The notes under the pieces are model-generated. The model did no database searches and had not been told where the DNA came from. It saw only the letters and a list, made by a program, of their open reading frames with translations. Positions 7,239-42,286 of a stretch of DNA of 64,000 nucleotides are shown piece by piece (the first letter of the stretch is position 1; each line of letters begins with the position of its first letter). The position numbers and the translations under genes were made by a program. This DNA comes from a virus, in IMG/VR virus record IMGVR_UViG_3300046492_000237, positions 1-64,000 of that record. One strand, given 5' to 3'.

Positions 7239-7261
7239 GTCGTGACGCCATCCTTTCCCGA
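7239..7261 (+). promoter_or_regulatory. Putative late promoter GTCGTGAC-gccAtccT-N6; +1 is the terminase ATG (leaderless)
   Basis: One of 12 copies of the motif; no Shine-Dalgarno upstream of ATG 7261. Confidence 0.75.
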
Positions 7262-9891
7262 TGACTAGAAAACCATCGATCAAACTCCCTACGCCACATC
7301 GCGTACAGCAGAAGATTCTCGACAAAGCCAGCCGCTTCAACGCGGTCGCCATGGGCGAACAGGGCGGGAAAACTACCCTCGGCATCGAGGTGCTTTTGCT
7401 TGGCCCGCGCGGCGCTATCAAAGGCAAAGCCCCGGTAGGATGGTTCTCTGCTACCGAATCCAAAATGCTCGAAGTCGTTGGCATGGTGGTGGCGGCGATC
7501 GCGCCGCTGATCAAGCGCCGCATCAGCAACAAGCGGATCGACCTCACCACCGGCGGCTCGATGTTCTTCTACAGCATGGACGACCTTCCCGAGGTGTATG
7601 AGCAGTTCGGTCTGGTCGTTGTCGATGATGTCTGCCGGGTAAATGGATTCCTGTCCACCTATGAGCCGGTGCTCACTCAGGCCCTCGAAGCCCACAATGG
7701 CGACGCGTGGTTCCTTTCTGGCGCCTACGGTAAGCGCAACGACTTCCACAAGCTGCTGCAGGCCGGCAAGCAGGATCCTGACTGGTCGTGCTGGCAGTTC
7801 GATTCGTTCTGCAACCCATTCCTGAGCGCCGCCACCAAAGAGGAAGCCGACAAGGTCAGTGAACCAGAGTACCTGCAGCGCTTCGGCGCCGAGTTTCTGG
7901 ATGTCGCGATCGAGCTGACCAACGCGCAGCGCGTCATCGGGCCGGATGAAACATTCCGCCAGTGGGTTGAGCGACTGGCAGCGGACGGCCTCAAGGTCGA
8001 CGGGCGCGCATTCAAGCTGTCCGACCGCCCTGCCATGGCATGGATCTACGATCAGGTCCCCAGCACCGCAGACGAGGCCTTCCGCTACGTGCTGGTGCTG
8101 ATGAAGTGCGCACAGGTGGGATTTACCGTCATGGAAATGCTGGCGGTGATCTATCTGGGGATCAAGTTCCAGCCGGCGACCGTGGGCATGTTCCTGCCCG
8201 ATATGAACTTGGCCGGCCTCAAGTCTGCCGAACGCTTCATGCCGATCGTGCGCACCATCCCGGACGTTCACAACCTGATGACCATGGATGACCCTAACGG
8301 CGGCGGCAGGAAGTCTGGCGAAGGCAACGTGCGGACGCGGCGGATCTCCGAAGCGATGTTTGTCTTCAGCTGGACTTCCGGTCGATCGACCACGGAGTCG
8401 ATCCCGATGGACATCCTGTCGTTTGACGAAGTGCAGGAAATGACCCTCGAGCAGCTGGAGAAAACGCGCGAGCGTCTGTCTGCAAGCCCGATCCGTTTTA
8501 CGCTGATGGGCAGTACCGCGAACTGGCCGGACGTTGATATTCATCACTGGTACAAAAAGGGCAGCAAGCACCGATTCCATACCGAGTGCCCGCACTGCCT
8601 TGAGGCAAAGCCTCTGGACGACTACTTTCCGGAGTGCATCAAATACGACAAGATCACCAACCGGCATCGCTACGTCTGCTTCAGCTGCCAAGGCTGGATC
8701 GACGACACCCAGCGCGGCGAGTGGGTTGCAGAAGAACCCGAACTTGATCCGCCGATCGATCATTCGATGCCAAAGCGCGACTGGCCATTGCGCATTCGCT
8801 CAATTCACTTCCCGCAGTTCCTGTCGCCGACCATCTCGGCCGGCGAGATCATCGACGCGTACAACACCGCTACGGACATGAAGAACTTTTTCAACCGTAA
8901 GCTGGGCAAGCCGTACCTTGACCCGAGTCAGGTTCCGGTCACGCTCGAGCACATGGCGAACTGCGCCAAGGTCGGTATGGCCGCCGGTATCGTCTGGAAG
9001 TCGCGTGCGAAGGGTGCCTACATGGGCATCGACCAGATGGGTAACTTCAACGTTCATGTGATCAAGGAGCGGCTGCCAGACGGGCGTCAGGCCGTGATTC
9101 ACGTTGAGGAAACCTACAGCGCGGATCCGTTCGCGCGATCAGCTGAGCTGATGGACCTTTACGGCATCGCCATCTGCGTGGTCGAGATCAACCCGAACTA
9201 CAATGACGCGAAAAAGTTCGCCAACCAGTTCCCCGGCCGGGTATTCATCTGCAACAGCTTCGGCAGCATGATGGAAGGCATGATTCAGTGGGGCGACACG
9301 CCGAAACTCGATCGTAGCGATCGGCGCACCGATGAGGACGCTCAGGATCGCTACACACTGAAAATGGACCAGTACAAGTGCATGCAGGTCAGCATGTCGC
9401 GCTTCACCACGCCAGAGCCATCCTGCATCTTCCCCGACCCGCAGGGGTTGGTACAGGAAGTCATCGACAAGGGCCAGAAACAGATGGTGGCCGTCCTCCC
9501 GCGCGTGTTCCACCACTTCACCAAGACCGCACTTGTGGCGGAAAAGGACGAGGAAACGAACCAGTACCGGCGATCGGTTAAAAAGGTCGGCATCGACCCC
9601 CACTTCAGCTACGCCAACATGCTGTGCGATGTGGCATGGTCGCGATCGCACGGCACCACCACGTTCATCCTGCCCGATATAGACAGCACCCAGCGCGGCA
9701 TGCTGGAGCCGGGCAACATTCAGGTGCCGGGCACGATCGCTGCGGCAATGCATGAACAGCAGATGGCGCTGGAGGACACCTGTGGGCGTTGCACGCACTT
9801 CAACGAGGAAACCCGCATGTGCGTGGAGAACATGGTGCTGACCCGCGCCACAAGTCCGAGCTGCTACGCCTACATCGCCAAGCAGTCGTGA
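7261..9891 (+). CDS. Terminase large subunit: lambda GpA-like ATPase, Zn-binding segment and RNase H-like nuclease, with an extra N-terminal ATPase-like domain
   Basis: KCAQVGFT (GpA-type Walker A), ILSFDEV (Walker B), CPHC/CFSC and YMGIDQ (nuclease). The N-terminus has QQKIL...MGEQGGKTT and LVVVDD. Confidence 0.85.
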   Translation: MTRKPSIKLPTPHRVQQKILDKASRFNAVAMGEQGGKTTLGIEVLLLGPRGAIKGKAPVGWFSATESKMLEVVGMVVAAIAPLIKRRISNKRIDLTTGGSMFFYSMDDLPEVYEQFGLVVVDDVCRVNGFLSTYEPVLTQALEAHNGDAWFLSGAYGKRNDFHKLLQAGKQDPDWSCWQFDSFCNPFLSAATKEEADKVSEPEYLQRFGAEFLDVAIELTNAQRVIGPDETFRQWVERLAADGLKVDGRAFKLSDRPAMAWIYDQVPSTADEAFRYVLVLMKCAQVGFTVMEMLAVIYLGIKFQPATVGMFLPDMNLAGLKSAERFMPIVRTIPDVHNLMTMDDPNGGGRKSGEGNVRTRRISEAMFVFSWTSGRSTTESIPMDILSFDEVQEMTLEQLEKTRERLSASPIRFTLMGSTANWPDVDIHHWYKKGSKHRFHTECPHCLEAKPLDDYFPECIKYDKITNRHRYVCFSCQGWIDDTQRGEWVAEEPELDPPIDHSMPKRDWPLRIRSIHFPQFLSPTISAGEIIDAYNTATDMKNFFNRKLGKPYLDPSQVPVTLEHMANCAKVGMAAGIVWKSRAKGAYMGIDQMGNFNVHVIKERLPDGRQAVIHVEETYSADPFARSAELMDLYGIAICVVEINPNYNDAKKFANQFPGRVFICNSFGSMMEGMIQWGDTPKLDRSDRRTDEDAQDRYTLKMDQYKCMQVSMSRFTTPEPSCIFPDPQGLVQEVIDKGQKQMVAVLPRVFHHFTKTALVAEKDEETNQYRRSVKKVGIDPHFSYANMLCDVAWSRSHGTTTFILPDIDSTQRGMLEPGNIQVPGTIAAAMHEQQMALEDTCGRCTHFNEETRMCVENMVLTRATSPSCYAYIAKQS

Positions 9892-9907
9892 AACCAGACT
9901 GGTCACT
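9885..9907 (+). promoter_or_regulatory. Late-promoter motif variant GTCGTGAA-accAgacT upstream of 9927
   Basis: Overlaps the terminase stop codon; A and T are at the conserved positions. Confidence 0.55.
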
Positions 9908-9926
9908 TCGATAGATGAGGTGACCG

Positions 9927-10568
9927 ATGAAAATGAAGCTGCTGGACTACCCGCGCGCACTGGTGCAGGCGATCGGCCTGATCACCCTGCGCGTGGTGCT
10001 GATTGTGGCGGGGTTTGCGGTTGTACCGATCGCGCTGCCATTCCGCAAGGTTGACGCGAGCACCACCAAGCCATTCACTGAAAACGCAGGAAACTGGACG
10101 CTGGTCACGCTGCCCCGCTGGGCGTGGCTATGGTCCAACGACCGTGATGGAGCCATGGGCGATGAGCGCGGCTGGTGGCATGTCAACGGGCCGTTCGGCC
10201 TTCCGTCCGATCACTGGTTTTCTATGCTGGTCTGGCTGGCCCTCCGCAACCCTGCAAATAACGCGCGCTTCACCAAATTCATGGGCTGCCCGGTACTCGA
10301 CTGCGTGTATGACTACTGGGGCGACAAGGTGGTCAAGGACAAGGTAGGGAATGCGGGACGGCGTTTTCTGGTCGCCACGCACAAGGTAACTGACCGACGC
10401 TACTACGGTTTCTACTGGGTTAAGATCTGGAACCCGCAGCGCGCACTGGTCGTGCAGATCGGGTTCAAGGGCGAGCCATCGGACTGGCAAGAGGATTATT
10501 CTGGCGATGAGAGCCGGCAATGGAAGGGGCTGACCTGCGAGATCAACCCATGGAAGAATATCGCCTGA
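9927..10568 (+). CDS. Trp-rich membrane-anchored phage protein
   Basis: N-terminal hydrophobic helix, LPRWAWLWSNDRDG and WLALRNPANN motifs, GAGGTG RBS. Confidence 0.7.
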   Translation: MKMKLLDYPRALVQAIGLITLRVVLIVAGFAVVPIALPFRKVDASTTKPFTENAGNWTLVTLPRWAWLWSNDRDGAMGDERGWWHVNGPFGLPSDHWFSMLVWLALRNPANNARFTKFMGCPVLDCVYDYWGDKVVKDKVGNAGRRFLVATHKVTDRRYYGFYWVKIWNPQRALVVQIGFKGEPSDWQEDYSGDESRQWKGLTCEINPWKNIA

Positions 10569-10571
10569 CGG

Positions 10572-10964
10572 CTACTGCCCGCCAGTCAGCAGGAACTGGC
10601 TCATGTAGTCGCTCCACGTCGTGAAGCCCGGCAGTTTTTTGAAGTCGTCAACGCTCAGCAGGATGTAAATGTCCTTGCCGGTGTTCTGGTCGACGCCGGA
10701 ATATTCAACGCTGCCGTCGCGATTCACCAGCCAGCACCCGAGGTTGATACGCTGGGTGCTGGCTGGATACCCGGCTACCGCCGATAACATCCGCGCAGAA
10801 TGCTGGCCGAACTTGCAATCGATCGAGTCGACAGGGCCGTCACTGAGCTGCAGGGTCAGCACGGTTGTTTTGTAGGTGACCACGCGCTCGGCGATGGCCT
10901 GCTCAGCGTTTGCCGAACCAACCATGGCCAGCACCAGCCCTATCGCCGCGATTACCTGCTTCAT
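10572..10964 (-). CDS. Exported hypothetical protein
   Basis: Sec-type signal peptide MKQVIAAIGLVLAMVGSANA; GGAGG RBS. Confidence 0.75.
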   Translation of the reverse strand: MKQVIAAIGLVLAMVGSANAEQAIAERVVTYKTTVLTLQLSDGPVDSIDCKFGQHSARMLSAVAGYPASTQRINLGCWLVNRDGSVEYSGVDQNTGKDIYILLSVDDFKKLPGFTTWSDYMSQFLLTGGQ

Positions 10965-10979
10965 ACAGCCTCCGATCGA

Positions 10980-14857: not shown

Positions 14858-14880
14858 GTCGTGACGGCATGCTGTGGCCA
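14858..14880 (+). promoter_or_regulatory. Late promoter; +1 is the portal ATG (leaderless)
   Basis: GTCGTGAC-ggcAtgcT-gtggcc-ATG. Confidence 0.75.
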
Positions 14881-16520
14881 TGACCGACAATGCCATCCAA
14901 ACCGCGCACAACCCGTCTGCTCCGAAAGATGAGCAGCAGGACGCCATGCGCGAAGCACAAAAGAACGCGATCCCGAGCAGCGTCGAAGACATGATGCCGC
15001 TGATCAAATTCATGTCCCAGCAATATGAGGATCAGGAGTTCGCGAAGGCTCTGACAAAGCCCAACGTGATCCCGTATCCGAGCATGGCGGCCGCCAAGGG
15101 CGAATCCGGCATGCAGTCCGTATATCTGGACGAGCGCCGGGTTGAAATGCTTGGCGAATATTACGAGCGCCCGGGCGCCTTCGGCTTCGACATGATGCGA
15201 GCAATGGTCGACCAGACGCCGATCCTGTCAGCGGTGATCATGACCCGCGAGCGGCAGATCCGTCGGTTCTGTCGTGTGCAGGAAACCGGGAAAGGCCCCG
15301 GCTTCGCGATTCGGCACAAGGATCAGAGCATCAAGATGGGCAAGACCGAGCAGAGCACCATCACTCTGCTCGAAAGCTTTTTCACGAACTGCGGCTGGGA
15401 GTCGAAGCCGCGCCAGCGCATGCGCCTGCGCCGCGACAACTTTTCCGGGTTCATGTCGAAGCTGGTGCGGGACACGCTGACCATGGACAGCGCCGCGATC
15501 GAGACTGAGTGGAAGCGTGACAAGGCCAAAGGCCTCGATGGCATGTACGCGGTCGACGGCGCCACCATCCGCCTCTGCACCGAATCAGGCTACCGTGGCG
15601 ATGATGAGCTGTTCGCGCTGCAGGTGGTTCAGGGCAACATTCGCGCGGCTTACACCTATGACGATTTGATCTACGTCCCGCGCAACCCGCGCACCGACGT
15701 GATGGTCGGCGGTTACGGCATGTCCGAGGTCGAGCTGCTGATCAAAGTGGTCACCGGCTTCCTCAACGCCATGACCTACAACCTCAAGTTCTTCGATTCG
15801 AACACCATCCCGAAAGGGATTTTGCACATGGCCGGCGACTACAGCGCCGAGGACCTGAACAGCTTCAAGCGCTACTGGAACGCCATGACCAAGGGCGTGG
15901 CCAACGCGTGGACCATGCCGGTGATGATCGCCAAGAATGGCGAGTCGAAAGCGTCGTTTGAGAAATTCGATGTCGATGTCGACGAACTGATGTTCGGCAA
16001 GTGGATGACCTTCCTCACGTCGATCATCTGCGCGATCTACGGCATGGCTCCGGATGAAATCAACTTTGAGAGCTTCACCACGGGCACCAGCTCGCTGAGC
16101 GGTAGCGACACCGAGGAAAAGTTGATCAACTCCAAGGACAAGGGGTTGCGGCCGCTGCTGTCCTACTTCGAGGACCTGTTTTCCGATTACGTCGTGTCTG
16201 AGTTCAACGAGAACTATGTGTTCCGCTGGACCGGTCTGGACGAGATGGATTCCAAACAGGCTTGGACTGAGGAAAACGCGATCAGCACTTGGGGTGAAGC
16301 CCGCAAGGCTCGCGGTCAGGATGAGATCGCAGACGACGTGCTCAACAACGCGCCGCTCAACCCGAACCTCATGGGCATCTATATGCAGACCGTGATGGGC
16401 GGCGGTGATGATGATTCCCAGCCAGCCGGCGGTGCGCCAGCCAAGCCAAAAAAGGCACCGAAAAGCGATAGCGAGCTGCAAAAGGCCTTTGGCCTGCCGC
16501 AGTTCAGGGTGGATCCGTAA
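14880..16520 (+). CDS. Portal protein
   Basis: ~546 aa with portal motifs VDGATIR, YGMSEVE, NLKFF...IPKGIL, ICAIYGMAPDEI, GLRPLL; first gene of the head module. Confidence 0.9.
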   Translation: MTDNAIQTAHNPSAPKDEQQDAMREAQKNAIPSSVEDMMPLIKFMSQQYEDQEFAKALTKPNVIPYPSMAAAKGESGMQSVYLDERRVEMLGEYYERPGAFGFDMMRAMVDQTPILSAVIMTRERQIRRFCRVQETGKGPGFAIRHKDQSIKMGKTEQSTITLLESFFTNCGWESKPRQRMRLRRDNFSGFMSKLVRDTLTMDSAAIETEWKRDKAKGLDGMYAVDGATIRLCTESGYRGDDELFALQVVQGNIRAAYTYDDLIYVPRNPRTDVMVGGYGMSEVELLIKVVTGFLNAMTYNLKFFDSNTIPKGILHMAGDYSAEDLNSFKRYWNAMTKGVANAWTMPVMIAKNGESKASFEKFDVDVDELMFGKWMTFLTSIICAIYGMAPDEINFESFTTGTSSLSGSDTEEKLINSKDKGLRPLLSYFEDLFSDYVVSEFNENYVFRWTGLDEMDSKQAWTEENAISTWGEARKARGQDEIADDVLNNAPLNPNLMGIYMQTVMGGGDDDSQPAGGAPAKPKKAPKSDSELQKAFGLPQFRVDP

Positions 16521-16529: not shown

Positions 16530-16552
16530 GTCGTGACGCAATGATCAACGCA
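16530..16552 (+). promoter_or_regulatory. Late promoter; predicted +1 at A16552
   Basis: GTCGTGAC-gcaAtgaT-caacgc-A. Confidence 0.7.
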
Positions 16553-16800
16553 TTGAGCCCAAGCATCCCCTAAGTCTGAGGGGGCCGGGAGGGGTTAAGC
16601 TCCCGGGTACTATTCACCTTGCATCGCTCAAGGTTTTGAGTCGGCAACGACCCATGCAGACAAAGCGGAGAAGCGCAACCCCCCTGTAGACTTGGTTATC
16701 CCTCCTCGCCAAGTCTATAAGTCGCCAAGGGCGGGAGTCCGATGCTGTCGGTCGGTGGATGTCCAGACGCTCCGCTGGCGCCACCGACTGGGGCGACCCT
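16552..16800 (+). ncRNA. Candidate highly structured ncRNA or long leader between the portal and MuF genes
   Basis: At least six hairpins directly after the predicted +1; no credible ORF in the interval. Confidence 0.5.
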
Positions 16801-16822
16801 TCACTCTCCAAAGGATGCGCTT

Positions 16823-17965
16823 GTGGCTTTTCTCCTCGACCTCACACCTATCAGCCGGCAGACAACCAACGCCGCGCTCGAATTCATTTACAAGGCAGTC
16901 CACGATGGTGAAGACGGCATCTGGAGTCCGCATGAGTCCGTGCTGATCCGCAGACTTGTCGAGCTGTTCTCCGAACGCGGCCTCGATCGTCTTGAACACG
17001 TCAAGCAGCAGATCATCGCATGGGAAAATGGCGACCACTTCAAACCCGGCGCGCCTCAGCCTGTTGCCGTCCCGGGCATGATGGGGCGCTGGTCTGACGC
17101 CGAGCTGAAACTGGTCCGCGTCTACCTCGAATCGCTCCCGCCGAGCAGCTGGTCGCTGGATGACCACATGATGGCCGTCGATTACGTGGTTCAGCGCTAC
17201 CTTCCTGCCGATGAGTTGCGCACCGAAGCGGAGTGGATGGCCACCCGCGCAAACCTCATGGGCAAGGTGCAAGCCAATCTCGATCAGCCGGCCACGGTCA
17301 CGCAGGCGGACAAGGTTCTGGCCGCGCTGCCATCGACCATGGCTGCCGCAGTTCAACAGTTCAACATCAATCAGCAGCAGCTGAAAACCATGGCGTTCGG
17401 TAATGCCCGGGCCGCCGAGAACGTGCGCGCGCTGGCCGACGATGTCAGGCACCGGATGCGCAACGCGGTGATGCAGCACCTTGAGGAGGAGTTTACCGGC
17501 GGCACCAGCGAATCGCTGCAGACCAAACTGTTCGACCAGTTCGCCACGTTGAACCGTGACTGGCGCCGGATTGCCGTCACTGAGGCGGGCGAGACCATGA
17601 ATCAGGGTTTCATCGCCAACCTTGCTCCCGGCACAAAGGTTCAGCGCATCGAGCAGTACGCCAGTGCGTGCGCGTTCTGCCGCAAGATCCACAAGCGTAT
17701 TGCCACAGTGGTATCCCCGGACAAGCCAGACAAGGATGGCGAAACAGAGATCTGGGTCGGCAAAAACAACATTGGCCGATCGGCATCCCCGCGCAAGCGT
17801 GTGGGTGACACGTTGGTCAATCGCACGCCAGATGAAATGTACTGGTTACCCGCCGGGCTTGCGCATCCGCACTGTCGCGGGCGCTGGGTGCTGGTGATTC
17901 AGGACCTGCCCGGTGATGATCCGGAGTTCGGCGACTGGTTGCGTAAGACGCTCGGCGGCGAATAG
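16823..17965 (+). CDS. Head morphogenesis protein (MuF / SPP1 gp7-like)
   Basis: RDWRRIAVTE, CAFC and HPHCRGRW; GTG start after AAGGA. Confidence 0.8.
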   Translation: MAFLLDLTPISRQTTNAALEFIYKAVHDGEDGIWSPHESVLIRRLVELFSERGLDRLEHVKQQIIAWENGDHFKPGAPQPVAVPGMMGRWSDAELKLVRVYLESLPPSSWSLDDHMMAVDYVVQRYLPADELRTEAEWMATRANLMGKVQANLDQPATVTQADKVLAALPSTMAAAVQQFNINQQQLKTMAFGNARAAENVRALADDVRHRMRNAVMQHLEEEFTGGTSESLQTKLFDQFATLNRDWRRIAVTEAGETMNQGFIANLAPGTKVQRIEQYASACAFCRKIHKRIATVVSPDKPDKDGETEIWVGKNNIGRSASPRKRVGDTLVNRTPDEMYWLPAGLAHPHCRGRWVLVIQDLPGDDPEFGDWLRKTLGGE

Positions 17966-18306: not shown

Positions 18307-18329
18307 GTCGTGACGACACCATTGAGGCA
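18307..18329 (+). promoter_or_regulatory. Late promoter; +1 is the protease ATG
   Basis: GTCGTGAC-gacAccaT-tgaggc-ATG. Confidence 0.75.
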
Positions 18330-19222
18330 TGACAGAAGCCCAGCATCAAAGTGCCAATCCAGAATATCTAAGCATCGGAACGATGCTGAAGGCTCGCCCC
18401 TCCGAGGAGAAAGGCGAGCGCTTCATCTATCTGGAAGCCAGCCGCGAAGGCGCCGACCAGCAGAACGATATCGTCCTCGCGAAAGCGCTGGAGGATTCTG
18501 CGCCCCATTTCCTCAAGTTCGGAAACATCGATATCGACCACAAGTCGATGCCGTCGATCGCTGCCCAGTACGGCATCACCGAGCCTGAAGCGTGGGAGGT
18601 CGGCGTTCCCGAGGAGGTTCGCGTTGACGGCCCTTCGGTATTCGTCAAGGCTCGCCTGTTCAAGGGTGATACACCGCTCGCGGCCAAGGCCAACATGGTC
18701 TGGGAAAGCATGACTCAGCTGAGTCCAGCCGCTCGCTGGTATGCATCCGTGGGTGGCGCAACTTTGGCTCGCCGCGATGGCGTTGATCACCTGACCAAAT
18801 CAAAAGTCAGCTATGTGACCAAGGTTCGCTGGAGCAACTTGGCTATCAGCCGCCAGCCAGTCAACCAGCACGTTTCTGCTGCCAGCACCATTCCCTTTGG
18901 GATCCTCGCCAAGTGCTGGACGCCGGCTGGCTTCGACATGGCGAAAGCTTTGGAAGCCAGCTACGCCACCGACGTCTCCCAGCTTTCGGGTGGCGGCGCA
19001 CTCGGCATGCAGTCGATCGATGCCGGACCTTCCTATTTTCAGTTCCGCGATCAGCTTTCTGAGTCGCTACTGGAAGGTCGTGACCACATCATTCAATCCG
19101 CACAAGGCTTGGCAGATTACGCCATGCACAAATTCGGTCTGTCTCGCGTTGAGGCAGTTGAATGGGTAACCCGTTTCATGCGCGACATCAAAAACTCACT
19201 GACAAAACGAGGCTCGGAATGA
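18329..19222 (+). CDS. Prohead protease
   Basis: IYLEAS-x3-DQQND, GNIDIDH, WYASVGG and LAISRQPVNQ (HK97/herpes-type protease layout); lies between MuF and the capsid gene. Confidence 0.8.
   Translation: MTEAQHQSANPEYLSIGTMLKARPSEEKGERFIYLEASREGADQQNDIVLAKALEDSAPHFLKFGNIDIDHKSMPSIAAQYGITEPEAWEVGVPEEVRVDGPSVFVKARLFKGDTPLAAKANMVWESMTQLSPAARWYASVGGATLARRDGVDHLTKSKVSYVTKVRWSNLAISRQPVNQHVSAASTIPFGILAKCWTPAGFDMAKALEASYATDVSQLSGGGALGMQSIDAGPSYFQFRDQLSESLLEGRDHIIQSAQGLADYAMHKFGLSRVEAVEWVTRFMRDIKNSLTKRGSE
19077..19099 (+). promoter_or_regulatory. Internal late promoter within the protease gene, positioned to drive scaffold and capsid
   Basis: GTCGTGAC-cacAtcaT is a full motif match. Confidence 0.6.
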
Positions 19223-19866
19223 GCGAAAAATTTCAAGCACTGCTCGCCGAGCTGGATCAGGCGGGCGCTGACACTCAAGAGCAACTGGCTAAATCGCTGC
19301 CTGCTGCTGTTGAGCCACAAACCCCTGCTGCGGCAACTCCTACTGCTGCCCCCGCGCCAGCTGCTGACCCGGTAAACCCGGAAGATGCCAACGGCGGCGT
19401 TCTGGCCAAGGCCCTCGGCGAAGTAAATGCTCTGGCGCAAGGCGCTCAAGCGGCTACCGGCGACGATCCTGTTGTTATCGATGGCGAAGAAATCTTCAAG
19501 TCGCTGGAAGCCCTTGGCGGCCGCCAGACCGGTGTTGAAGAAGTGCTGACCAAATCCGTGACCTCTCTTCTGGGTCTGGTCAAAGGTCAGAACGCGCTGA
19601 TCAAGTCCCTGTCCGACCGCCTCGATGTCCTCGGTGGCACCGGCGCCGGTCGCCGCACCGTGATTCAGGTTCAAGAGCGCCCGGACGTCGGCGGTGTGCT
19701 GGCCAAGGCTCAGCCTGAAGGCATGAGCGCACCGGAAATTCTGGCAAAAGCTAACACCGCGTTCGATGCCAAGAAAATCACCGGTCTTGAACTCACCGCG
19801 CTGGACGTGAGTCTGCGCAACGGTCAGGTGCCATCGACCGAAACCCTGAACAAAATTCTTTCCTAA
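19219..19866 (+). CDS. Probable scaffolding/head assembly protein
   Basis: Position between protease and capsid; Ala/Pro-rich linker; seven hydrophobic-x-K(S/A) repeats. Confidence 0.7.
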   Translation: MSEKFQALLAELDQAGADTQEQLAKSLPAAVEPQTPAAATPTAAPAPAADPVNPEDANGGVLAKALGEVNALAQGAQAATGDDPVVIDGEEIFKSLEALGGRQTGVEEVLTKSVTSLLGLVKGQNALIKSLSDRLDVLGGTGAGRRTVIQVQERPDVGGVLAKAQPEGMSAPEILAKANTAFDAKKITGLELTALDVSLRNGQVPSTETLNKILS

Positions 19867-19919: not shown

Positions 19920-21422
19920 ATGGACATCAACCAACTCGCTGCACAATTCGGCGCTGCCGCTCCCGGCGGGGCTCCCATTCTGGGCGGTTCTCAGGGCGGC
20001 GCACCGGCGCAGGACCTGATCAAGGCTCTGGAAGCCAGTAATTACCAGACCGACGTTTCCACCCTCACCGGTGGTGGTGCTCTGGGCGTTCAATCGCTGG
20101 ATACGGCGATGAAGACCACCGTGCAGGAGAACGAACACTTCACCCTGTTCAACCGCCTGCAATCCACCAGCGCGACCAACATCGTTGACGAATACGTTCG
20201 TCAGAACAGTGTCGGTGGCTTCCTCGGTGGCTCGACCAACTCCCAAATGGGCGTGGTTCGCTCGGCTCAGGGCGAGTACACCCGCGAAGTCGGTCTGGTC
20301 AAGTTCCTGATGACCCTGCGTCAAGTCGGCTACGTGCTGAACATCGGTAAGAACATCACCGATGCCACCGCAGTCGAAGAACGCAACGGCGCCATGCAGC
20401 TGCTGACCGACGCCGAGTACCTGCTGTTCCACGGCAACGCCGATGCGTGCCCGACCCAGTTTGACGGTATCTTTGCCCAGCTGGACAAAGAAATTGCCGC
20501 CGGCCAGATGTCTGGCGACAACGTGATCGACCTGCAGGGCAAGAAGCTCGACAGCGTCGAAGCGTTCTCCAAGATCAACGTTGCGGTCAGCCGTTACGGT
20601 TCGTGGGGTCGCAGCACCGACGTTTACATGCCGAACAGCGTGCAAAACGACCTGAACACCGGTTTGGACCCAGCGTATCGCTGGACCCCGGGCGGCGGTA
20701 ACACTCCGGTTCTTGGTGGCCACGTTGAAGGCATCCGCCTGACCAACGGCGTACTGAAGACCAACATGGACACCTTCATCCACGATGAAGAAAACCCGAT
20801 GGTCTACCCGTTCGAGGTGTACAACGCCGCGATCGCTACCGCCAACGCTGCGTTCAAGCCAGCCGGCGTGACCGTCGATGCCTCGGCTAACGCCACCGAC
20901 TCGCAGTTCACTTCGGCCCGCGCCGGTAACTACTACTGGGCTGTTGCCGCTGTTGGCGGCCAAGGTCAGGGCCTGACGGCGGTTGTACTGACCGGGCAGA
21001 CCGCTGTGGCTGCTGGTAAAAGCGCTGTGCTGACCATCACCAAGTCGGCAGCCGGCACCGAAACTGGTTACGCGATTTATCGCAGCCGCCAGAACGGCAC
21101 CAACGCTGTAAACGATCTGCGTCTGGTCAAGACCATCAAGAAGACTGGTGACACCACCACCTTCACCGACGTCAACCGCGATATCCCGGGCACGGTCTCG
21201 GTCCCGCTGTTGAACATGGGTCCAAGCGCGGACGCTATCGGCTGGCGTCAATTCCAGCCGATGACCAAGATCCCGCTGCCGTTCGGTATCGGTGGCATGC
21301 CTGTCATCAGCTGGTTCCAGTTCCTGTTCGGTTACCTGCGTATGACCAAGCCGAAGCATCACGGCTACATCAAGAACATCCTGCCGAGCAACGCCAAATG
21401 GCGTCCGCACGTAGGCGAGTAA
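19920..21422 (+). CDS. Major capsid protein
   Basis: 500 aa, strongly biased codon usage, GGGALGVQSLD N-arm, EYLLFHGNAD...QFDGI. Confidence 0.9.
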   Translation: MDINQLAAQFGAAAPGGAPILGGSQGGAPAQDLIKALEASNYQTDVSTLTGGGALGVQSLDTAMKTTVQENEHFTLFNRLQSTSATNIVDEYVRQNSVGGFLGGSTNSQMGVVRSAQGEYTREVGLVKFLMTLRQVGYVLNIGKNITDATAVEERNGAMQLLTDAEYLLFHGNADACPTQFDGIFAQLDKEIAAGQMSGDNVIDLQGKKLDSVEAFSKINVAVSRYGSWGRSTDVYMPNSVQNDLNTGLDPAYRWTPGGGNTPVLGGHVEGIRLTNGVLKTNMDTFIHDEENPMVYPFEVYNAAIATANAAFKPAGVTVDASANATDSQFTSARAGNYYWAVAAVGGQGQGLTAVVLTGQTAVAAGKSAVLTITKSAAGTETGYAIYRSRQNGTNAVNDLRLVKTIKKTGDTTTFTDVNRDIPGTVSVPLLNMGPSADAIGWRQFQPMTKIPLPFGIGGMPVISWFQFLFGYLRMTKPKHHGYIKNILPSNAKWRPHVGE

Positions 21423-23338: not shown

Positions 23339-23970
23339 AATTCAATCGCGGGCACTTCAACCGGTTCCTGAACAACATCGGCCAGCAGTTCATCTGGCAG
23401 CGATCCTATGCGTGCTCCTGCGTGACAGCTGCAGAAGGCGCGGCGGATCCGAAGTGCTCGCTTTGTTTGGGCAAGGCCTATTTCTGGACTAACCCGACAC
23501 CAGCATCGGCGGCATCGGCCGGGCAGAAGACGCAGAACGCGTGGGCGAAGATGGGCATGTGGCAAAATGGCGACATGGTGATGACGGTTCCGGAGAACTC
23601 TCCGCTGTGGGATGCCGGCCCGTTCGACCGGGTGACCATGCTCAACGCCACGGATCGATTCTCGCTGCCATTGAAGCGCGGCGCGCCGACCGAAAGAATC
23701 CTGTTCACCCCGAAAAAGGTTGAGCGCGTGTTCTGGAAGGATGCAGCTACCGGTGCCCTTGTCGAGGGTGGCATTCCGGTTTTTGACGCCAACGGTCGTC
23801 CTACGTGGACCACTGGCGAGCCGCCTCCGGGGATGAACTACTCGGTCAGCGGGACACGCTTGTCTGAATACTTCCTGTATATGGACTTCCCGCACAACCG
23901 CAACATGCACGACGGTATGCGCCTGCCGAAACTCACGGTGCTGCGCCGCTGGGATCTGCTGGGGCGCTAG
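23335..23970 (+). CDS. Neck/head-closure protein with CSC...CSLCLG
   Basis: Coupled to the adaptor; Zn-motif N-terminus. Confidence 0.6.
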   Translation: MKFNRGHFNRFLNNIGQQFIWQRSYACSCVTAAEGAADPKCSLCLGKAYFWTNPTPASAASAGQKTQNAWAKMGMWQNGDMVMTVPENSPLWDAGPFDRVTMLNATDRFSLPLKRGAPTERILFTPKKVERVFWKDAATGALVEGGIPVFDANGRPTWTTGEPPPGMNYSVSGTRLSEYFLYMDFPHNRNMHDGMRLPKLTVLRRWDLLGR

Positions 23971-24827
23971 CCCTGCATCTTGGTCACGGTGCGTTTGATC
24001 GCTTCCTCAAACGCCGACAGCGCCTTCTGCTGCATATCTTCCGATGTCTTCTGCGCGATCTGCTGCCCCGGCTGGGGCGGCACGATCCAGCCGCCAGACC
24101 CTTCCATCATGACCCGGAACGTCAGATAGGCCGATGACTTGCCGCCGCCCGGCGTGCTGGTATCGAAGCGATGCATGCCCTGAGCCCACTTTCTGGTGGC
24201 CGGGTCGATCCCCGCGCCCTTCATGGCGCCACGCTTGAGGCTGCCGCCCCATGAGTAGTGGTTTTTGTTGACCATCATGGTCGACTTTGTTTTCGCATTC
24301 GACAGAAACGGCGTCTGTTTCGATGACGGCGACATTCCAGCTGTGGGCGAAAGGTTGGTGACCTCGCCGCTTGGCCGCTCGCTCTGGTTAAGGATTGTTG
24401 AGGGGTCAAGATCCTTGGCCATCCCGTAGATGCCAGCGGCTTCCAACTTCGCCGCGTTGTGCCGCATCGGGATGATCAGGAAGCGCCGCCCGTCCTCAGT
24501 GCGCCGCACCTTGAGGCTGGTGCCGAGCATTTTTTTCAGGTCTTTCGCCGGGCGCCCGTTCTCAATTTCTTGGTCGTACCGGTAATCCGACTCTACCAGT
24601 GCGGTGAAGTCGCCAGTCATGTGCCAGCCGATCGTTTTGGCGTAGGCGTCTTTCTCCCCAGACCACAACTTCGCCTGATAGACGTTCGCCTGCCAGTTCG
24701 CGGCGGTCTGCGCAGCAACTGCGCGCACGGCTTGATTGAGCAGCGGAAAGATCTGTTTGTTGATGATCCCGACGCCGTCAAGAGCGTCGCCGAGGTTGAA
24801 CGTGAGCTTGAAGTTTAGGTCTGCCAT
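23967..24827 (-). CDS. Virion morphogenesis/neck protein, inverted relative to the operon
   Basis: IENGRPAKDLK, FLIIPMRH, YLTFRVM and GWIVP motifs; has its own late promoter. Confidence 0.65.
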   Translation of the reverse strand: MADLNFKLTFNLGDALDGVGIINKQIFPLLNQAVRAVAAQTAANWQANVYQAKLWSGEKDAYAKTIGWHMTGDFTALVESDYRYDQEIENGRPAKDLKKMLGTSLKVRRTEDGRRFLIIPMRHNAAKLEAAGIYGMAKDLDPSTILNQSERPSGEVTNLSPTAGMSPSSKQTPFLSNAKTKSTMMVNKNHYSWGGSLKRGAMKGAGIDPATRKWAQGMHRFDTSTPGGGKSSAYLTFRVMMEGSGGWIVPPQPGQQIAQKTSEDMQQKALSAFEEAIKRTVTKMQG

Positions 24828-24888
24828 GAGCCCAGCGTCGCGTCACGATGGCGCCCCGGCAAATCGTCGTGACGCCATCATAATCCCA
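24827..24888. promoter_or_regulatory. Back-to-back divergent late promoters, both leaderless
   Basis: Minus: ATCGTGAC (24849-24842), 14 nt, ATG 24827. Plus: GTCGTGAC (24866-24873), 14 nt, ATG 24888. Confidence 0.8.
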
Positions 24889-25706
24889 TGATCTCTATTA
24901 TCCGGCCGATCGCCGTCGGCAACGCGTTGCGACTATTCCTCGAACCCCCAGCGGGCGCGACGAAGTGGCGCGTTCTGCGTAAAGGCACTGACACAATCGC
25001 ATCCTTCGATGACCCGTCAGCGCTGCTGGTGTTTGAGGGCGAAACCAAGTTTTTCGTTGATGCCGCGTCGCTCCCAAACGAAGTCATGGCTTTCTACAAG
25101 CCGTTCTACTGGGTCAACGGTGCGTGGGTTTCCGGCCAAGGCAACAGCGGCACGCCAGCAGCGATTTACGAGGATCACAGCACCGATGTGGTGTCCTTCC
25201 TGCGCGAGCGCCTTGAGGCTGGCTTGCAGGTCGAAGTGCAGCGCGGAAATTTCAACACTGAGCTCGGCTACATCCAAGTTTATACAGCCCCGCCATCCCT
25301 CGAGCAGAACCTGATGTTCCCGTGCGTCACCGTGGAACTCAGCGATGCAGGTCGCGGCGAGTCAGGTATCGGCGAAGACATCGGCAGCGATGAGGATGAC
25401 GAAGAATCCGAAGGCTGGCTTGAGGACGTGTCCGTCAGCATGGTCGCGTGGTCGCTCAATCCGCTCGAGCGTATCGAGCTGCGTAAAGCGCTTCGCCGCC
25501 TGTTGCTGGCAAATCTGCCGGTGCTCGATGACCACGGGATCCAGCAGGTCAGTTTCCGCTTCAGCGACATCAATGCCGTCAATGGCGAGTTCGGCGCACC
25601 GGTCTATCAGGTGCTTTGCAATCTTTCATGTGTTGCGCCAGCGCGTGTCAGCGCCCGCGTCAGCACGATTCAGGATGTTGTGGTCACGCTCTCGACCACC
25701 ACGTAA
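24888..25706 (+). CDS. Probable tail terminator/completion protein
   Basis: Position before the sheath; FPCVTV...E-x-GIGE. Confidence 0.6.
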   Translation: MISIIRPIAVGNALRLFLEPPAGATKWRVLRKGTDTIASFDDPSALLVFEGETKFFVDAASLPNEVMAFYKPFYWVNGAWVSGQGNSGTPAAIYEDHSTDVVSFLRERLEAGLQVEVQRGNFNTELGYIQVYTAPPSLEQNLMFPCVTVELSDAGRGESGIGEDIGSDEDDEESEGWLEDVSVSMVAWSLNPLERIELRKALRRLLLANLPVLDDHGIQQVSFRFSDINAVNGEFGAPVYQVLCNLSCVAPARVSARVSTIQDVVVTLSTTT

Positions 25707-28262: not shown

Positions 28263-28285
28263 GTCGTGACCCGACAATGACTTGA
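28263..28285 (+). promoter_or_regulatory. Late promoter; predicted +1 at A28285
   Basis: GTCGTGAC-ccgAcaaT-gacttg-A, immediately after the terminator. Confidence 0.7.
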
Positions 28286-28317: not shown

Positions 28318-28746
28318 ATGAGTACCGAACAACCGAACCGGGAAGGCCGCGCGCCAGCCACCACTGATTTTCATGTCGATGTCGATGGCATCGGCCATTT
28401 TGTCTTCGCGCGGCGCACCATGCGCGATGAGATGCGGATCTCTGCGGAATACTCGCGCTTCACTGAAGGCCTGTCGCAGCCGACCAACTACCTCGATTCC
28501 ATGGCCGGCTGGATCGCCACATTGAACGTGCTGACGGTGTCGATGCCGCACAACTGGGATCCGGAAAACATGGACCCATTCGATCCGGAGAGCGAGGAGA
28601 ACATCCTCAAGGTTTACAGTGCGCTCCGCATCAAGGAGGGGTCTTTTCGTCCCAAAAAGGAAGCAGCGAGCGAAGGCAGCGGGCAAGGAAATGGCCCAAC
28701 GAGTGAGCTTCTGGTTTCGCCACCGGTACCGCCTGCCGCCGACTGA
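28318..28746 (+). CDS. Tail assembly chaperone (G-like)
   Basis: Lies between tube and tape measure genes; GGAG RBS. Confidence 0.7.
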   Translation: MSTEQPNREGRAPATTDFHVDVDGIGHFVFARRTMRDEMRISAEYSRFTEGLSQPTNYLDSMAGWIATLNVLTVSMPHNWDPENMDPFDPESEENILKVYSALRIKEGSFRPKKEAASEGSGQGNGPTSELLVSPPVPPAAD

Positions 28747-33859: not shown

Positions 33860-33863
33860 ATCC

Positions 33864-33886
33864 GTCGTGACGCCATTATGGCGTCA
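33864..33886 (+). promoter_or_regulatory. Late promoter; +1 is ATG 33886
   Basis: GTCGTGAC-gccAttaT-ggcgtc-ATG. Confidence 0.75.
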
Positions 33887-35040
33887 TGGACCTATCTACG
33901 CCCGCATCGCAGAAAGCAGACGAGTGCCCCATTACTTTTGTGATGGAGGACGAGTCTGCCGGTACGTCTGACGAATTGACCCTTTTGATCCGCCCAGAGG
34001 AGCTGTCCATCGGCTTCCCTAGTCGCCTGTCCGTCAATCAGACGCTGGGTGGCGGCTGGGCTGATAGCTTCGGTGAGGGGATCGAAGAAGGCACCTACTC
34101 CGGCACCTTGGGATGGCGCGCTACCAGCTCGGACAGTGGTGGCGGTGAACGTCTGGCCAAGATGAAAGAGTTTACTTACAGCGACTGGCATGCACGTCGT
34201 TCTGCCGCCGTGGTGAAGGGTGATGACCCTAGCATGGTCCGGCTGATTCTGGTCGACACGCTGAACAATTACTCCCGCGTCATCGCTCCTCGGATCTTCG
34301 AGCTGAAACGCAGCAAGAGCCGTCCGTTGCTGTGCCAGTACCGGTTCAATTTTGTGATGCTGTCGAAGGATGTTACCCGACAAGACCTGCTTATGTCCGA
34401 CACCGGATTCGGCAGCATCCTCGGCACGATAGGCGCGTGGATCGACAGCTTTACCGCGTCGATCAACAACATCACCGATCGCATCCGCGAGGCGTACAAG
34501 TGGATCGATAAAACGATCATCGCGCCGATCAAGAAATTCGTTGCAACCACCATGCGACTGTACACGGCTGTGAAAAATCTGGTGACTGCGGGCGTCGGCA
34601 TCATTCGCCAAGTCGGCAGCATTGCGACATTGGCGACTCAGGCGATCACCAACGTGCTGCGCGCGGCGGCGATCGTGGTGAATATCCCGAACATCGGCAA
34701 GGCGGCGATCATGAACGTGGTCCGCGAGTACACGAACCTGTTCTGCCTGCTGAAAAATGCCAAGAAGGTGCTTGATTACGAGGACTACTCGGACATCTAC
34801 GGCGCATCTAACTGTTCGTCAACCGGCGGCGGTCGTTCGATCTCGGTCTATTCCGGATCGACCAACAACACCTTCGCCGCCGTGGCCAAGGAGACGCCAT
34901 CTCCGGTGCTTGTGACTCAGGCCGCCTCGACCAGCATGAAGACGATCGCCAGCACTGATCTGGTGACCACGCCACTGCCGGCCGCCGTTATCGCCAGCAA
35001 CCTCAACGTGATCAACTCCGGCCTGTCGGTGACCACATGA
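33886..35040 (+). CDS. Baseplate/tail-tube initiator-like protein
   Basis: IRPEELS...QTLGGGWADSFGEG...SGTLG pattern; position. Confidence 0.6.
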   Translation: MDLSTPASQKADECPITFVMEDESAGTSDELTLLIRPEELSIGFPSRLSVNQTLGGGWADSFGEGIEEGTYSGTLGWRATSSDSGGGERLAKMKEFTYSDWHARRSAAVVKGDDPSMVRLILVDTLNNYSRVIAPRIFELKRSKSRPLLCQYRFNFVMLSKDVTRQDLLMSDTGFGSILGTIGAWIDSFTASINNITDRIREAYKWIDKTIIAPIKKFVATTMRLYTAVKNLVTAGVGIIRQVGSIATLATQAITNVLRAAAIVVNIPNIGKAAIMNVVREYTNLFCLLKNAKKVLDYEDYSDIYGASNCSSTGGGRSISVYSGSTNNTFAAVAKETPSPVLVTQAASTSMKTIASTDLVTTPLPAAVIASNLNVINSGLSVTT

Positions 35041-39055: not shown

Positions 39056-39066
39056 CAAGGCTTCGC

Positions 39067-39089
39067 GTCGTGACAACAGACTGCGCGTA
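39067..39089 (+). promoter_or_regulatory. Late promoter; predicted +1 at A39089
   Basis: GTCGTGAC-aacAgacT-gcgcgt-A. Confidence 0.7.
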
Positions 39090-39106
39090 ACGCACGGAGA
39101 ACCTAC

Positions 39107-39562
39107 ATGACCGGCTTCAACCTAAAAGACCATTACGATAAGGCGCCAAGCGGCCTGTTTCTGCTGAAGGTTTACCGCGCTGGCGAACTGATCGAGGTCT
39201 TTGAAGAAAAGAACCTGATTGTTGACCTGTCCAAGCAAATCCACGCAAAGCTGCTCGGCGGCGCAGTGGCAAACCAGTCTGTAACCCAGATCGGCTTTGG
39301 CACCAACAACACGGCGCCTGCCGTGGGTAACACCTCGTTGACCAGCCCGTATCTGAAGGCCTTGGACAGCGTGACCTATCCGCTGACGAATCAGGTGTCT
39401 TTCAACTTCTCGCTGGGCACCACCGAAAACAACGGCGTCAACATCGGTGAATTCGGCCTGTTCACCGCAGGCGGCACTTTGTACGCCCGCAAAACGCGCA
39501 CCACTGTTCTTCCAAAAGCGTCCGACCTTTCGTTCGCGGGCTCTTGGATCATTTCTTTCTGA
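39107..39562 (+). CDS. Tail fibre attachment/collar protein
   Basis: NLIV...IGFGT...IGEFGLF...LYARK. Confidence 0.7.
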   Translation: MTGFNLKDHYDKAPSGLFLLKVYRAGELIEVFEEKNLIVDLSKQIHAKLLGGAVANQSVTQIGFGTNNTAPAVGNTSLTSPYLKALDSVTYPLTNQVSFNFSLGTTENNGVNIGEFGLFTAGGTLYARKTRTTVLPKASDLSFAGSWIISF

Positions 39563-39573
39563 GGCCCTGATTA

Positions 39574-40569: not shown

Positions 40570-40580
40570 GGAGTCTGTAA

Positions 40581-40991
40581 ATGAGCATTACCATTCCGGG
40601 CACCGGGCCAATGACGCTTCCGTCTGCCAGTGCTCTGGCCGCGAGCCCGGCAACAGGCGATCGTTCTGCAGCCATTGCCACCATGCAAAAATTCGCTGAT
40701 GAGTTCCCTGCCAGCTTAGCTTCAAACGGATATCAAAAGCTGCCAAATGGATTGATTATTCAATGGGGGCTTAGCTCAACATCATCCGCAGGAACTAACA
40801 CGATCAGCCTTCCTACTGCATTCAGTAATACTGGCTATAGAATTAGTTGCAGTCCATTAGACGTCTCTGTTCCGAATAATGTTTCGTGCTCGCCAAACAG
40901 CACAACTGCATTCAACTCATCTGGATGGGGCCCTACAGCTTCTAATGCGAGAGTTACAACATCGTTTACGTGGATTGCCATCGGCTACTAA
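40581..40991 (+). CDS. Stand-alone fibre-tip domain 1
   Basis: GYQKLPNGLIIQWG...WIAIGY. Confidence 0.8.
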   Translation: MSITIPGTGPMTLPSASALAASPATGDRSAAIATMQKFADEFPASLASNGYQKLPNGLIIQWGLSSTSSAGTNTISLPTAFSNTGYRISCSPLDVSVPNNVSCSPNSTTAFNSSGWGPTASNARVTTSFTWIAIGY

Positions 40992-41000
40992 GGATCACTC

Positions 41001-41465
41001 ATGAGCACAGCAAAAGTAAACCGCTTGCAGCTCGGCCAGTCCGGCACTGCAACGCAGAACTTCACCCTGACAGCTGAAGCTGCTGACGGGACGATGAAGC
41101 TGGCGCGTGGTGTGGCGGGCGGGACCACTCAGGACATCATGATAATCAATGCTGCTGGCGAGGTTGATTTTCCTCAGCTTGTGCGACTGTATGGCGTAAG
41201 CGGATATCAAAAACTTCCGGGCGGTCTCATCGTTCAATGGGGGCCAACGCCAACGACAACGCCGGGCGGCGGATCTTTTGTTGTCACATACCCGATCATT
41301 TTTCCGAACGGCTTCCTTTCCGTCATTGCGCAAGGCGGCGCGACCAGCGCTGCATCCATTCCATATTCTGGTTTGGACGTTTCAGCAAGCCCCCGGACAA
41401 ACTTCAGATTCTGGGTTGCAAGCAATGGCGCGCTACCCGGTAACTACATTGCACTCGGCTTCTAA
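41001..41465 (+). CDS. Stand-alone fibre-tip domain 2
   Basis: GYQKLPGGLIVQWG...YIALGF. Confidence 0.8.
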   Translation: MSTAKVNRLQLGQSGTATQNFTLTAEAADGTMKLARGVAGGTTQDIMIINAAGEVDFPQLVRLYGVSGYQKLPGGLIVQWGPTPTTTPGGGSFVVTYPIIFPNGFLSVIAQGGATSAASIPYSGLDVSASPRTNFRFWVASNGALPGNYIALGF

Positions 41466-41480
41466 AATCAGGAGAAAATC

Positions 41481-41819
41481 ATGTTCGCTTCAATTTCCGC
41501 CCGTGGGTTCTTCGACCCAGAGATTCATACCTCGATGCCGAATGACGCGATCGAGATGCCTGAAGGCCTTCACGCAACCCTGATGAACGGCCAGTCCGAA
41601 GGCAAGATCATTACATGGGGAAAGGAAGGCCTTCCGTACCTCGCTGAGCGCCCAGCGCTGACAACCGACGAGCTGAATACCATCGCGCTTTCCAGCCGTG
41701 AAACAGCATATCGCCTCGAAGCAGATCCACTGTTTTTCCAAGTCCAGCGTGGCGACGTCGAGAATCAGGTCTGGCTCGACAAGATCGCTGAAATCAAAGC
41801 CCGCTATCCGAAGGTGTAA
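41481..41819 (+). CDS. Tail fibre assembly chaperone
   Basis: GFFDPEIH...MPNDAIE...L..GQSEGKII, EADPLFF...IKARYP. Confidence 0.75.
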   Translation: MFASISARGFFDPEIHTSMPNDAIEMPEGLHATLMNGQSEGKIITWGKEGLPYLAERPALTTDELNTIALSSRETAYRLEADPLFFQVQRGDVENQVWLDKIAEIKARYPKV

Positions 41820-41821
41820 CC

Positions 41822-42253
41822 ATGTCCGTCTCTCTACGTGCTGACAACGGCGGCGCAACCGGCGCCCTGCAGCTGAATGGCTCTGACAAGCTGGTGCTCA
41901 ATGCCGATGGCACGATTAGCGGCACGGTTAACCCAGCAACAGGCCTGCGCAGCATGGCGCTGGCTACCATGCAAAAATTTGCGGATGAGTTTGGAGCGTT
42001 ACAGCAGAATACCGGATGGCAAAAGCTTCCAAGCGGTCTGATTATCCAATGGGGTTTTTCAACTCCGGCTGGTGCTGGTGTGATTGCCGCTGTAACTCTT
42101 CCAGTTGCTTATCCTAACGCACATCTTGTTGCTATGGGATCATCTTCCAATAACGTTGGATATGCTGGAGCAACAAAAATCAATACATCCCAAATTGGCG
42201 TGTTTGGAAGTCAAGCGACCAATAACGTTTTCTGGATGTCGATCGGTTTTTAA
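41822..42253 (+). CDS. Stand-alone fibre-tip domain 3
   Basis: GWQKLPSGLIIQWG...WMSIGF. Confidence 0.8.
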   Translation: MSVSLRADNGGATGALQLNGSDKLVLNADGTISGTVNPATGLRSMALATMQKFADEFGALQQNTGWQKLPSGLIIQWGFSTPAGAGVIAAVTLPVAYPNAHLVAMGSSSNNVGYAGATKINTSQIGVFGSQATNNVFWMSIGF

Positions 42254-42263
42254 TAGAAGTAGC

Positions 42264-42286
42264 GTCGTGATGCCACCATCCGCTTA
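42264..42286 (+). promoter_or_regulatory. Late promoter for the lysis cassette; predicted +1 at A42286
   Basis: GTCGTGAT-gccAccaT-ccgctt-A. Confidence 0.65.

Follow-up and report, generated by a model that had tools for sequence, protein, structure and literature searches.

A candidate -35-less late promoter motif, with predicted leaderless starts, in a ~90-kb myovirus and its relatives

Leaderless mRNAs are common in the Thermus host and rare in Proteobacteria. The promoter block of phage T4 gp55 is TATAAATA. The single-block gp36 promoters of phage phiEco32, tAATGTAtA, are read by a phage sigma factor (PMC8948821), and the late promoters of phage P1 are used by the host sigma70 enzyme together with the phage DNA-binding activator Lpa (gp10) and the host protein SspA (PMC1891329; PMC8198154). 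In the Thermus phage Lalka27a, transcription starts were mapped 6 nt past TANNNT, and most of the transcripts have no leader, their 5' end being the first base of the start codon (bioRxiv 10.64898/2026.04.20.719267). The reader of such Thermus phage promoters is thought to be the host RNA polymerase altered by a phage factor (bioRxiv 10.64898/2026.04.20.719267; PMC7403470). Here we describe a repeated 16-bp motif, GTCGTGAC-NN-nAnn(A/C)T, in a window of 64,000 nucleotides, which is the first 64 kb of a complete phage genome of 92,689 bp (IMG/VR record IMGVR_UViG_3300046492_000237, here G000) with 127-bp terminal repeats and a GC content of 58.9%. A search for sequencing runs gave four DNA metagenomes from the rhizosphere and no RNA.

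DNA and protein searches grouped this phage with other myoviruses of ~85-98 kb, among them Bordetella phage PHB04 (genus Phabquatrovirus), Pseudomonas phages Dolphis, Jeremy and Touem01, Aeromonas phage ST4, Yersinia phage fHe-Yen8-01, Enterobacter phage phiT5282EW and E. coli phage ECML-606-1; Morganella phage Mecenats66 is a more distant member of this clade. Packaging, head, neck, tail, baseplate, fibre and lysis genes occupy 7-44 kb of the genome, nearly all on the + strand, and by our own gene calls ~19% of the genome is non-coding. We propose, with a probability of about 80%, that the motif is a -35-less late promoter of this phage and its clade, serving the genes for the virion, packaging, lysis and injected cargo. 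The motif, its strand bias, its intergenic position, its conservation in the clade and the geometry of the start codons are observed; from them we infer that it acts as a promoter, where its +1 lies and what kind of factor reads it, and late timing is assigned because of gene function only.

The window contains the exact octamer GTCGTGAC 10 times, always on the + strand, against 2.9 +/- 1.6 expected, and none of 100 shuffles reached 10. The full pattern, GTCGTGAC-N3-A-N3-T, is found 9 times against 0.13 expected. In the whole 92,689-bp genome, 11 full matches run forward and none in reverse, and 10 of the 11 are intergenic. An earlier sequence-only reading of this DNA had listed a twelve-copy octamer motif ahead of packaging, head, tail and lysis units. 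All twelve positions were confirmed and the genes downstream are as it described, but the octamer is exact at only nine of them and carries one mismatch at 9885 (GTCGTGAA), at 24849 on the minus strand (ATCGTGAC) and at 42264 (GTCGTGAT). The 4th base after the octamer is A and the 8th is T in 12 of 12 copies, and the 15th base is A in 10 of 12 (the exceptions are 9885, with T, and 19077, with C), as had been stated. In six copies this A also proved to begin the ATG of a long open reading frame (ORF), at each of the coordinates given before (7261, 14880, 18329, 24827 on the minus strand, 24888 and 33886). One unlisted exact octamer, at 53851, lies within the coding sequence for SSB, and the 8th base after it is not T.

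The motif is also conserved across the clade. In PHB04 the block GTCGTGAC-nn-nACAAT-N6-ATG is present at the homologous portal, protease and baseplate genes, and at least six annotated starts (gp005, gp022, gp030, gp035, gp049 and gp064) fall exactly on the predicted +1. In Jeremy, the annotated starts of the adaptor (16308) and ADP-ribosyltransferase (86311) genes fall on the predicted +1, and the portal and protease ATGs lie one base after it. Upstream of ~80 portal homologues from IMG/VR (52-99% identity), all DNA has diverged save the block. The portal ATG lies exactly 14 nt past the octamer in most of these loci; in a minority the block stands 30-40 nt ahead of it and the leader contains a Shine-Dalgarno (SD) sequence. 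Five distant IMG/VR relatives with 41-65% GC have, when pooled, 47 copies in the direction of the genes and 0 in the opposite direction, and reversed-pattern controls gave 0. Among cultured relatives, 9 copies were counted in ECML-606-1 and 7 in fHe-Yen8-01, and within each genome all of them point the same way. When IMG/VR was scanned for the leaderless form of the motif, at least 118 stretches were returned. Most of the 80 that we looked at are the structural module of the phage's own clade, and those without homologues in G000 have a single oriented copy each, as chance hits would, except for two (L152 and L163). The literature found that names PHB04, Dolphis, Mecenats66, Touem01 or fHe-Yen8-01 yielded no discussion of promoters. 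In the literature at large, the bare octamer matched only unrelated primers.

The anatomy of the motif was derived from 160 distinct exact-octamer sites at 80 related loci. After the octamer, A is found in 90% of sites at the 4th base, T in 92% at the 8th and A or C in 89% at the 7th, and A-T-G is more weakly favoured at bases 15-17. No conserved information was seen in the 30 bases that precede the octamer; the motif therefore appears to have no -35 element. Two-hexamer sigma70 sites numbered 3 between 7 and 27 kb, none of them at a motif copy, against 6.5 expected, and 0 between 27 and 46 kb against 6.7 expected. The logo of the 160 sites and the lack of a two-hexamer site at any copy support the earlier description of a one-block, -35-less promoter. 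When the hexamer is set at -12 to -7, the octamer occupies -22 to -15, and its TG falls at -18/-17, not at the -15/-14 of an extended -10. The hexamer would be a minimal -10 box, with A(-11) and T(-7) flipped out by region 2 of a sigma70-family protein, and the octamer would stand in for the -35 contact.

Among ATGs preceded by the right A and T, the octamer has no mismatch in 76 cases, one in 50 and two in one, and the rest are background; a shifted control register gave no case with fewer than two mismatches. Where the octamer has a single mismatch, it is at position 1, 2 or 8, or in one case at position 3, and so the invariant core is CGTGA. The octamer had earlier been described as a quasi-palindromic GTC-NN-GAC box. 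Its constraints are asymmetric and do not resemble those of a dimer site, and the lack of symmetrical constraint on the GTC/GAC dyad argues against a dimer bound to a palindrome.

Of the systems described above, the P1 late promoter appears to be the closest known design. The P1 record annotates seven late promoters (LPmat, LPpro, LPlyz, LPdar, LPs, LPsit and LPpac), which read AAGTGACTT-N4-TAnnnT. P1 is a ~94-kb myovirus, its -35-less box also lies just upstream of a TAnnnT-type hexamer and is repeated ahead of late operons, and the pentamer GTGAC is common to both boxes. However, the P1 box has 9 bp and lies 4 nt from the hexamer, whereas the box described here has 8 bp and lies 2 nt from it, with GTGAC 4 bp closer. 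The seven P1 promoters all have leaders of ~20 nt or more and none is leaderless, and the structural genes of our phage are unrelated to the P1 regions compared (the first 48 kb and the lpa-pacA region). A homologue of Lpa is also lacking; phrog_1704 and PF25716 had no six-frame match at E<=10, and tblastn with P1 Lpa found nothing significant in G000 or seven relatives (best E 0.58). On the analogy with P1, a phage-specified factor probably reads the octamer, as Lpa reads the -22 box of the P1 late promoters. The late promoters of the Thermus phages Lalka27a and YS40, and the extended -10 middle/late promoters of P23-45 (with gp39/gp76), resemble the motif in having a class-specific -10 region and no -35 element, but their signature is TAGGGT with a C at -25 and not an adjacent octamer, and the phages are unrelated. 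A late design of a box plus a minimal -10 is thus already documented in P1, and leaderless late transcripts are documented in Thermus phages.

Start codons were mapped at 234 distinct sites, with the requirement that the ATG open an ORF of at least 70 codons. The ATG lies at the 15th base after the octamer (offset 0) in 95 of the 234 sites and at the 16th (+1) in 27, and almost none lies at +2 to +14. Leaders of 15-60 nt are found at 65 sites, 38 of which have an SD-like sequence; such a sequence precedes 3 of the 95 offset-0 ATGs. A fixed start at the 15th base predicts this gap in the start codons, because leaders of the missing lengths would be too short for a ribosome-binding site. Leaderless mRNAs need a 5'-terminal AUG, and this matches the finding that every one of the 95 offset-0 starts uses ATG, with GTG and TTG absent. 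RNA synthesis would begin 6-7 nt past the hexamer, on base 15 or 16 counted from the octamer. At six copies in the window, and at about half of those in the clade, this base would be the first letter of the ATG, and such mRNAs would have no leader and no SD sequence and would be translated by 5'-terminal-AUG initiation. The remaining copies would give leaders of at least 15 nt, most with an SD-like sequence. Transcription from the 15th base and leaderless mRNAs, which the sequence-only reading had suggested, are indirectly but strongly supported by the bimodality of start codons across the clade and by the annotated starts of PHB04 and Jeremy. Its suggestion that leaderless starts belong to lower-copy proteins did not hold in any way tested, and most copies in the Yersinia relative have 20-25-nt leaders. 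To our knowledge, leaderless mRNAs are rare exceptions in Proteobacteria, and lambda cI is the textbook case. In PHB04, in-frame ATGs upstream of the annotated starts of gp066 and gp014 (59527 and 13976) fall where motif copies predict +1 or +2, and these two coding sequences are probably annotated too short.

The copies in the window and the genes that follow them are listed below; transcription starts, leaders and leaderless starts are predicted.

7239..7261, + strand: GTCGTGAC, gc, CATCCT, N6; +1 at 7261, the A of the ATG of the large terminase gene (7261-9891); leaderless.
9885..9907, + strand: weaker copy GTCGTGAA spanning the terminase stop codon, with the -10-like hexamer CAGACT; ahead of the DUF7338 gene (9927-10568), with a ~20-nt leader containing GAGGTG.
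14858..14880, + strand: hexamer CATGCT; +1 at 14880, the ATG of the portal gene (14880-16520); leaderless.
16530..16552, + strand: hexamer AATGAT, right after the portal stop codon; +1 at 16552; ahead of a 407-aa head-associated gene (16742-17965), with a 190-nt leader (16552-16741), the longest in the window.
18307..18329, + strand: hexamer CACCAT; +1 at 18329, the ATG of the prohead protease gene (18329-19222); leaderless.
19077..19099, + strand: hexamer CATCAT, in the 3' end of the protease gene, with C as the 15th base; ahead of the gene in the scaffold position (19162-19866) and the major capsid gene (19920-21422).
24827..24849, - strand: divergent copy ATCGTGAC, one mismatch, hexamer GACGCT; +1 at 24827, the ATG of a reverse 286-aa gene (23967-24827); leaderless.
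24866..24888, + strand: hexamer CATCAT; +1 at 24888, the ATG of a 272-aa gene (24888-25706); leaderless.
28263..28285, + strand: hexamer GACAAT, directly after a terminator hairpin; +1 at 28285; ahead of a tail-chaperone-like gene (28318-28746), with a 33-nt leader containing GGAG.
33864..33886, + strand: hexamer CATTAT; +1 at 33886, the ATG of a 384-aa baseplate/virion protein gene (33886-35040); leaderless.
39067..39089, + strand: hexamer CAGACT; +1 at 39089; ahead of a 151-aa gene (39107-39562) that precedes the tail-fibre genes, with an 18-nt leader containing GGAGA.
42264..42286, + strand: GTCGTGAT, one mismatch, hexamer CACCAT; +1 at 42286; ahead of the holin gene (42312-42620), with a 26-nt leader.

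Outside the window there are three further copies, full or near-full.

81439: ahead of the probable small terminase gene.
88695: ahead of a small membrane-protein unit with its own terminator.
89319: ahead of the gene for a giant ADP-ribosyltransferase-containing protein; leaderless (predicted).

The giant ORF that follows the copy at 89319 runs from 89341 to 92689 of G000, crosses the ends of the record and continues at 1-948 of the window, with more than 1,100 codons before the record end. It is a homologue of a Jeremy protein annotated as an ADP-ribosyltransferase. On the minus strand at 44929-44976, between the integrase gene and a TraR/DksA-like zinc-finger gene, there is a one-mismatch copy, GGCGTGAC-agc-A-aac-T. 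Its function is doubtful because a terminator-like hairpin (44950-44929) comes right after the predicted +1.

The copies at 28263 and 42264 sit at terminator hairpins, as at unit boundaries. The copy at 42264 overlaps a terminator-like hairpin (42278-42305) that closes the upstream fibre unit, and this hairpin with its T-run (42278-42311) lies across the +1 predicted for the holin promoter. PHB04 shows this layout too. Transcripts of the upstream fibre unit would end at 42278-42311, and a new holin transcript, begun in the left arm, could not form the hairpin.

The 60-bp divergent region at 24828-24887 contains two back-to-back copies, each 14 nt from its ATG, and no SD sequence was found on either side of it. 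On its right, the 272-aa gene belongs to the neck/adaptor region and heads the sheath and tube genes. On its left, the 286-aa gene is the sole reverse gene of the virion block, is reversed in all relatives and has a predicted leaderless start; its box is a weaker one, degenerate at the first bases in the relatives (nnCGTGAC). We considered its product as a regulator and rejected it, since its model (pLDDT 84) locally matches the SaPI1 neck protein 9mu2_P with a probability of 0.96 over 67 columns. The product looks structural and neck-protein-like. The counterpart in fHe-Yen8-01 is not listed as particle-associated.

The divergent region and the fixed spacing bear on whether the motif is a promoter at all. 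The constant 14-nt distance to the ATG would suit a translation signal too, and the motif might be an RNA signal, for internal initiation independent of an SD or the processing of long late transcripts, or a DNA site for a repressor, packaging or recombination. However, for ~40% of the copies the start codon is 15-190 nt away, in most cases behind a 15-60-nt leader with an ordinary SD-like sequence, and A-N3-T is the pattern of a -10 box. Read-through transcription cannot feed both genes of the divergent pair at 24828-24887, and no other promoter candidate was seen in the late block. That the copies strictly follow the direction of transcription speaks against packaging or recombination sites. 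A role other than that of a promoter is therefore highly improbable.

If the motif is a promoter, the host holoenzyme is the likely enzyme, because no recognisable phage RNA polymerase or sigma factor was found. In six-frame searches Sigma70_r2 and Sigma70_r4_2 had no match at E<=10. The T7-type RNA_pol family also had none at this threshold, which is a weak test, as no control genome matched either. A DFDGD-type polymerase motif was not found. Pfam and PHROG scans of ~70 proteins, which are most but not all of the called genes, named no sigma or activator family, and the only transcription-type families among them were a Cro-like helix-turn-helix (HTH) protein, HU, a DksA-like zinc finger and the probable small terminase. 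The absence of an obvious sigma or activator gene from the window, which had been pointed out before, was borne out by these searches, and they gave none in the rest of the genome either.

These searches bear directly on the possibility that a diverged phage sigma-like subunit reads the 16-bp block by itself, with no separate activator, as T4 gp55 and phiEco32 gp36 read TATAAATA and tAATGTAtA. Promoters of gp36 and gp55 also consist of one block without a -35 element, have their start 6-8 nt downstream and stand ahead of middle or late genes. In its one unbroken block and its predicted start 6-7 nt further on, the element is like the gp36 promoters (PMC8948821), the block is invariant in hosts from Bordetella to E. 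coli, and the A and T at -11 and -7 would suit any region-2-like domain. On the other hand, phiEco32 and T4 encode a recognisable sigma-like protein, and the profile searches and family scans above found none here, with gp55- and gp36-specific families not among the accessions searched and many small proteins having no family. The gp36 and gp55 blocks are AT-rich extended -10 elements, whereas here a GC-rich octamer is joined to a minimal hexamer defined only by its A and T. In addition, the model of the Cys-rich protein A described below matches no solved fold, sigma domains included. We therefore regard a lone phage sigma factor as an unlikely reader.

Outside structure and replication, the only proteins found in every relative examined are two adjacent Cys-rich proteins, A and B, whose genes lie beyond the window.

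73699-74241 of G000: Cys-rich protein A, 180 aa.
74241-74642 of G000: Cys-rich protein B, 133 aa.

The two genes overlap by one base in TGATG and appear to be translationally coupled. Both are kept in all relatives examined, including distant ones at 41% GC, and no Pfam or PHROG family was assigned to either protein. The AlphaFold model of protein A is confident (pLDDT 89). Foldseek against the PDB gave no match to it at E<=0.001, the best VIA-align Z was 2.5 and sigma domains were unmatched too. In the Atlas only unnamed viral clusters were found for protein A, and its comparison with Lpa by hhalign was null. The fHe-Yen8-01 homologue of B is annotated as particle-associated. Upstream of the A and B genes, an intergenic array of ~600 nt (73.0-73.55 kb of G000) contains ~25 palindromic GGTWACC heptamers and could be an iteron, operator or origin-like array. 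Ahead of its capsid gene, Mecenats66 carries GTAACCGGTAACCGG.

It is possible, although we think it rather unlikely, that a new kind of phage transcription factor reads the octamer and redirects the host sigma70 enzyme to a box adjoining the -10, with the A/B pair as the best candidate. Such a factor would drive a late leaderless programme in Proteobacteria in which the box and the start codon evolve as one unit. A and B are candidate readers only, since Mecenats66 has both yet has 0 copies of the motif. Other candidates were sought by comparing Mecenats66 with motif-bearing relatives, and no gene tracks the presence of the motif. DUF7696 and the Cro-like HTH protein, like A and B, are present in Mecenats66 despite the lack of the motif, and the TraR-like gene and the integrase are absent from Mecenats66 but also from the motif-bearing relative G001. 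A pairwise BLAST of DUF7696 with Lpa scored 21.9 bits, which is not meaningful.

The TraR-like gene also enters into a reading in which the host holoenzyme uses the block without a sequence-specific phage protein, the polymerase being modified and contacting the octamer itself. The modification could be ADP-ribosylation by the injected giant ADP-ribosyltransferase, alteration by the TraR/DksA-like zinc-finger protein or the action of a factor that displaces sigma region 4. GTGAC has 4 of the 5 bases of the -35 sequence TTGAC, and the genome encodes both an Alt-like ADP-ribosyltransferase fused into a giant late protein (by the Jeremy annotation) and a DksA-like protein (phrog_54). The Thermus phage protein gp39 displaces region 4 and shifts the host enzyme to -35-less promoters (PMC7403470). 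However, a -35-like contact accounts neither for the C at octamer position 3, which is invariant, nor for the G and T ahead of it, which are well conserved, and there is no known case with region 4 one base pair from a -10 box. The TraR-like gene is missing from G001, a relative whose genome is 95% complete and in which 9 motif copies were counted. A modified host enzyme acting in this way seems to us improbable.

Several points weigh against a -35-less late promoter as the function of the motif. At the equivalent of -12, C is found in 50% of the 160 sites, T in 23% and G in 22%, and sigma70 prefers T. Two window copies, at 9885 and 19077, have no A at the predicted +1. No recognisable activator, Lpa or sigma factor was found to be encoded. 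Mecenats66 shares the structural genes and the Cys-rich early gene pair and yet has 0 motif copies, and its late genes have TATAAT-like boxes and SD leaders. The virion module can therefore do without the motif. We sought a replacement motif in this phage by strand-asymmetric k-mer counts, and codon bias swamped the signal.

Our data point to a -35-less late promoter, and if this is true, one compact late switch would be common to ~90-kb phages of Beta- and Gammaproteobacteria, with E. coli, Yersinia, Pseudomonas, Aeromonas and Bordetella as the cultured hosts in the clade. About half of the late transcription units would then be leaderless, and these phages would offer a natural system for leaderless translation at high expression. 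A leaderless start in half of the copies would be unusual for phages of Proteobacteria. The motif would serve as a reliable rule to call late transcription units and to mend start codons, as for gp066 and gp014 of PHB04. Discovery of the reader could show a new way to re-aim bacterial RNA polymerase.

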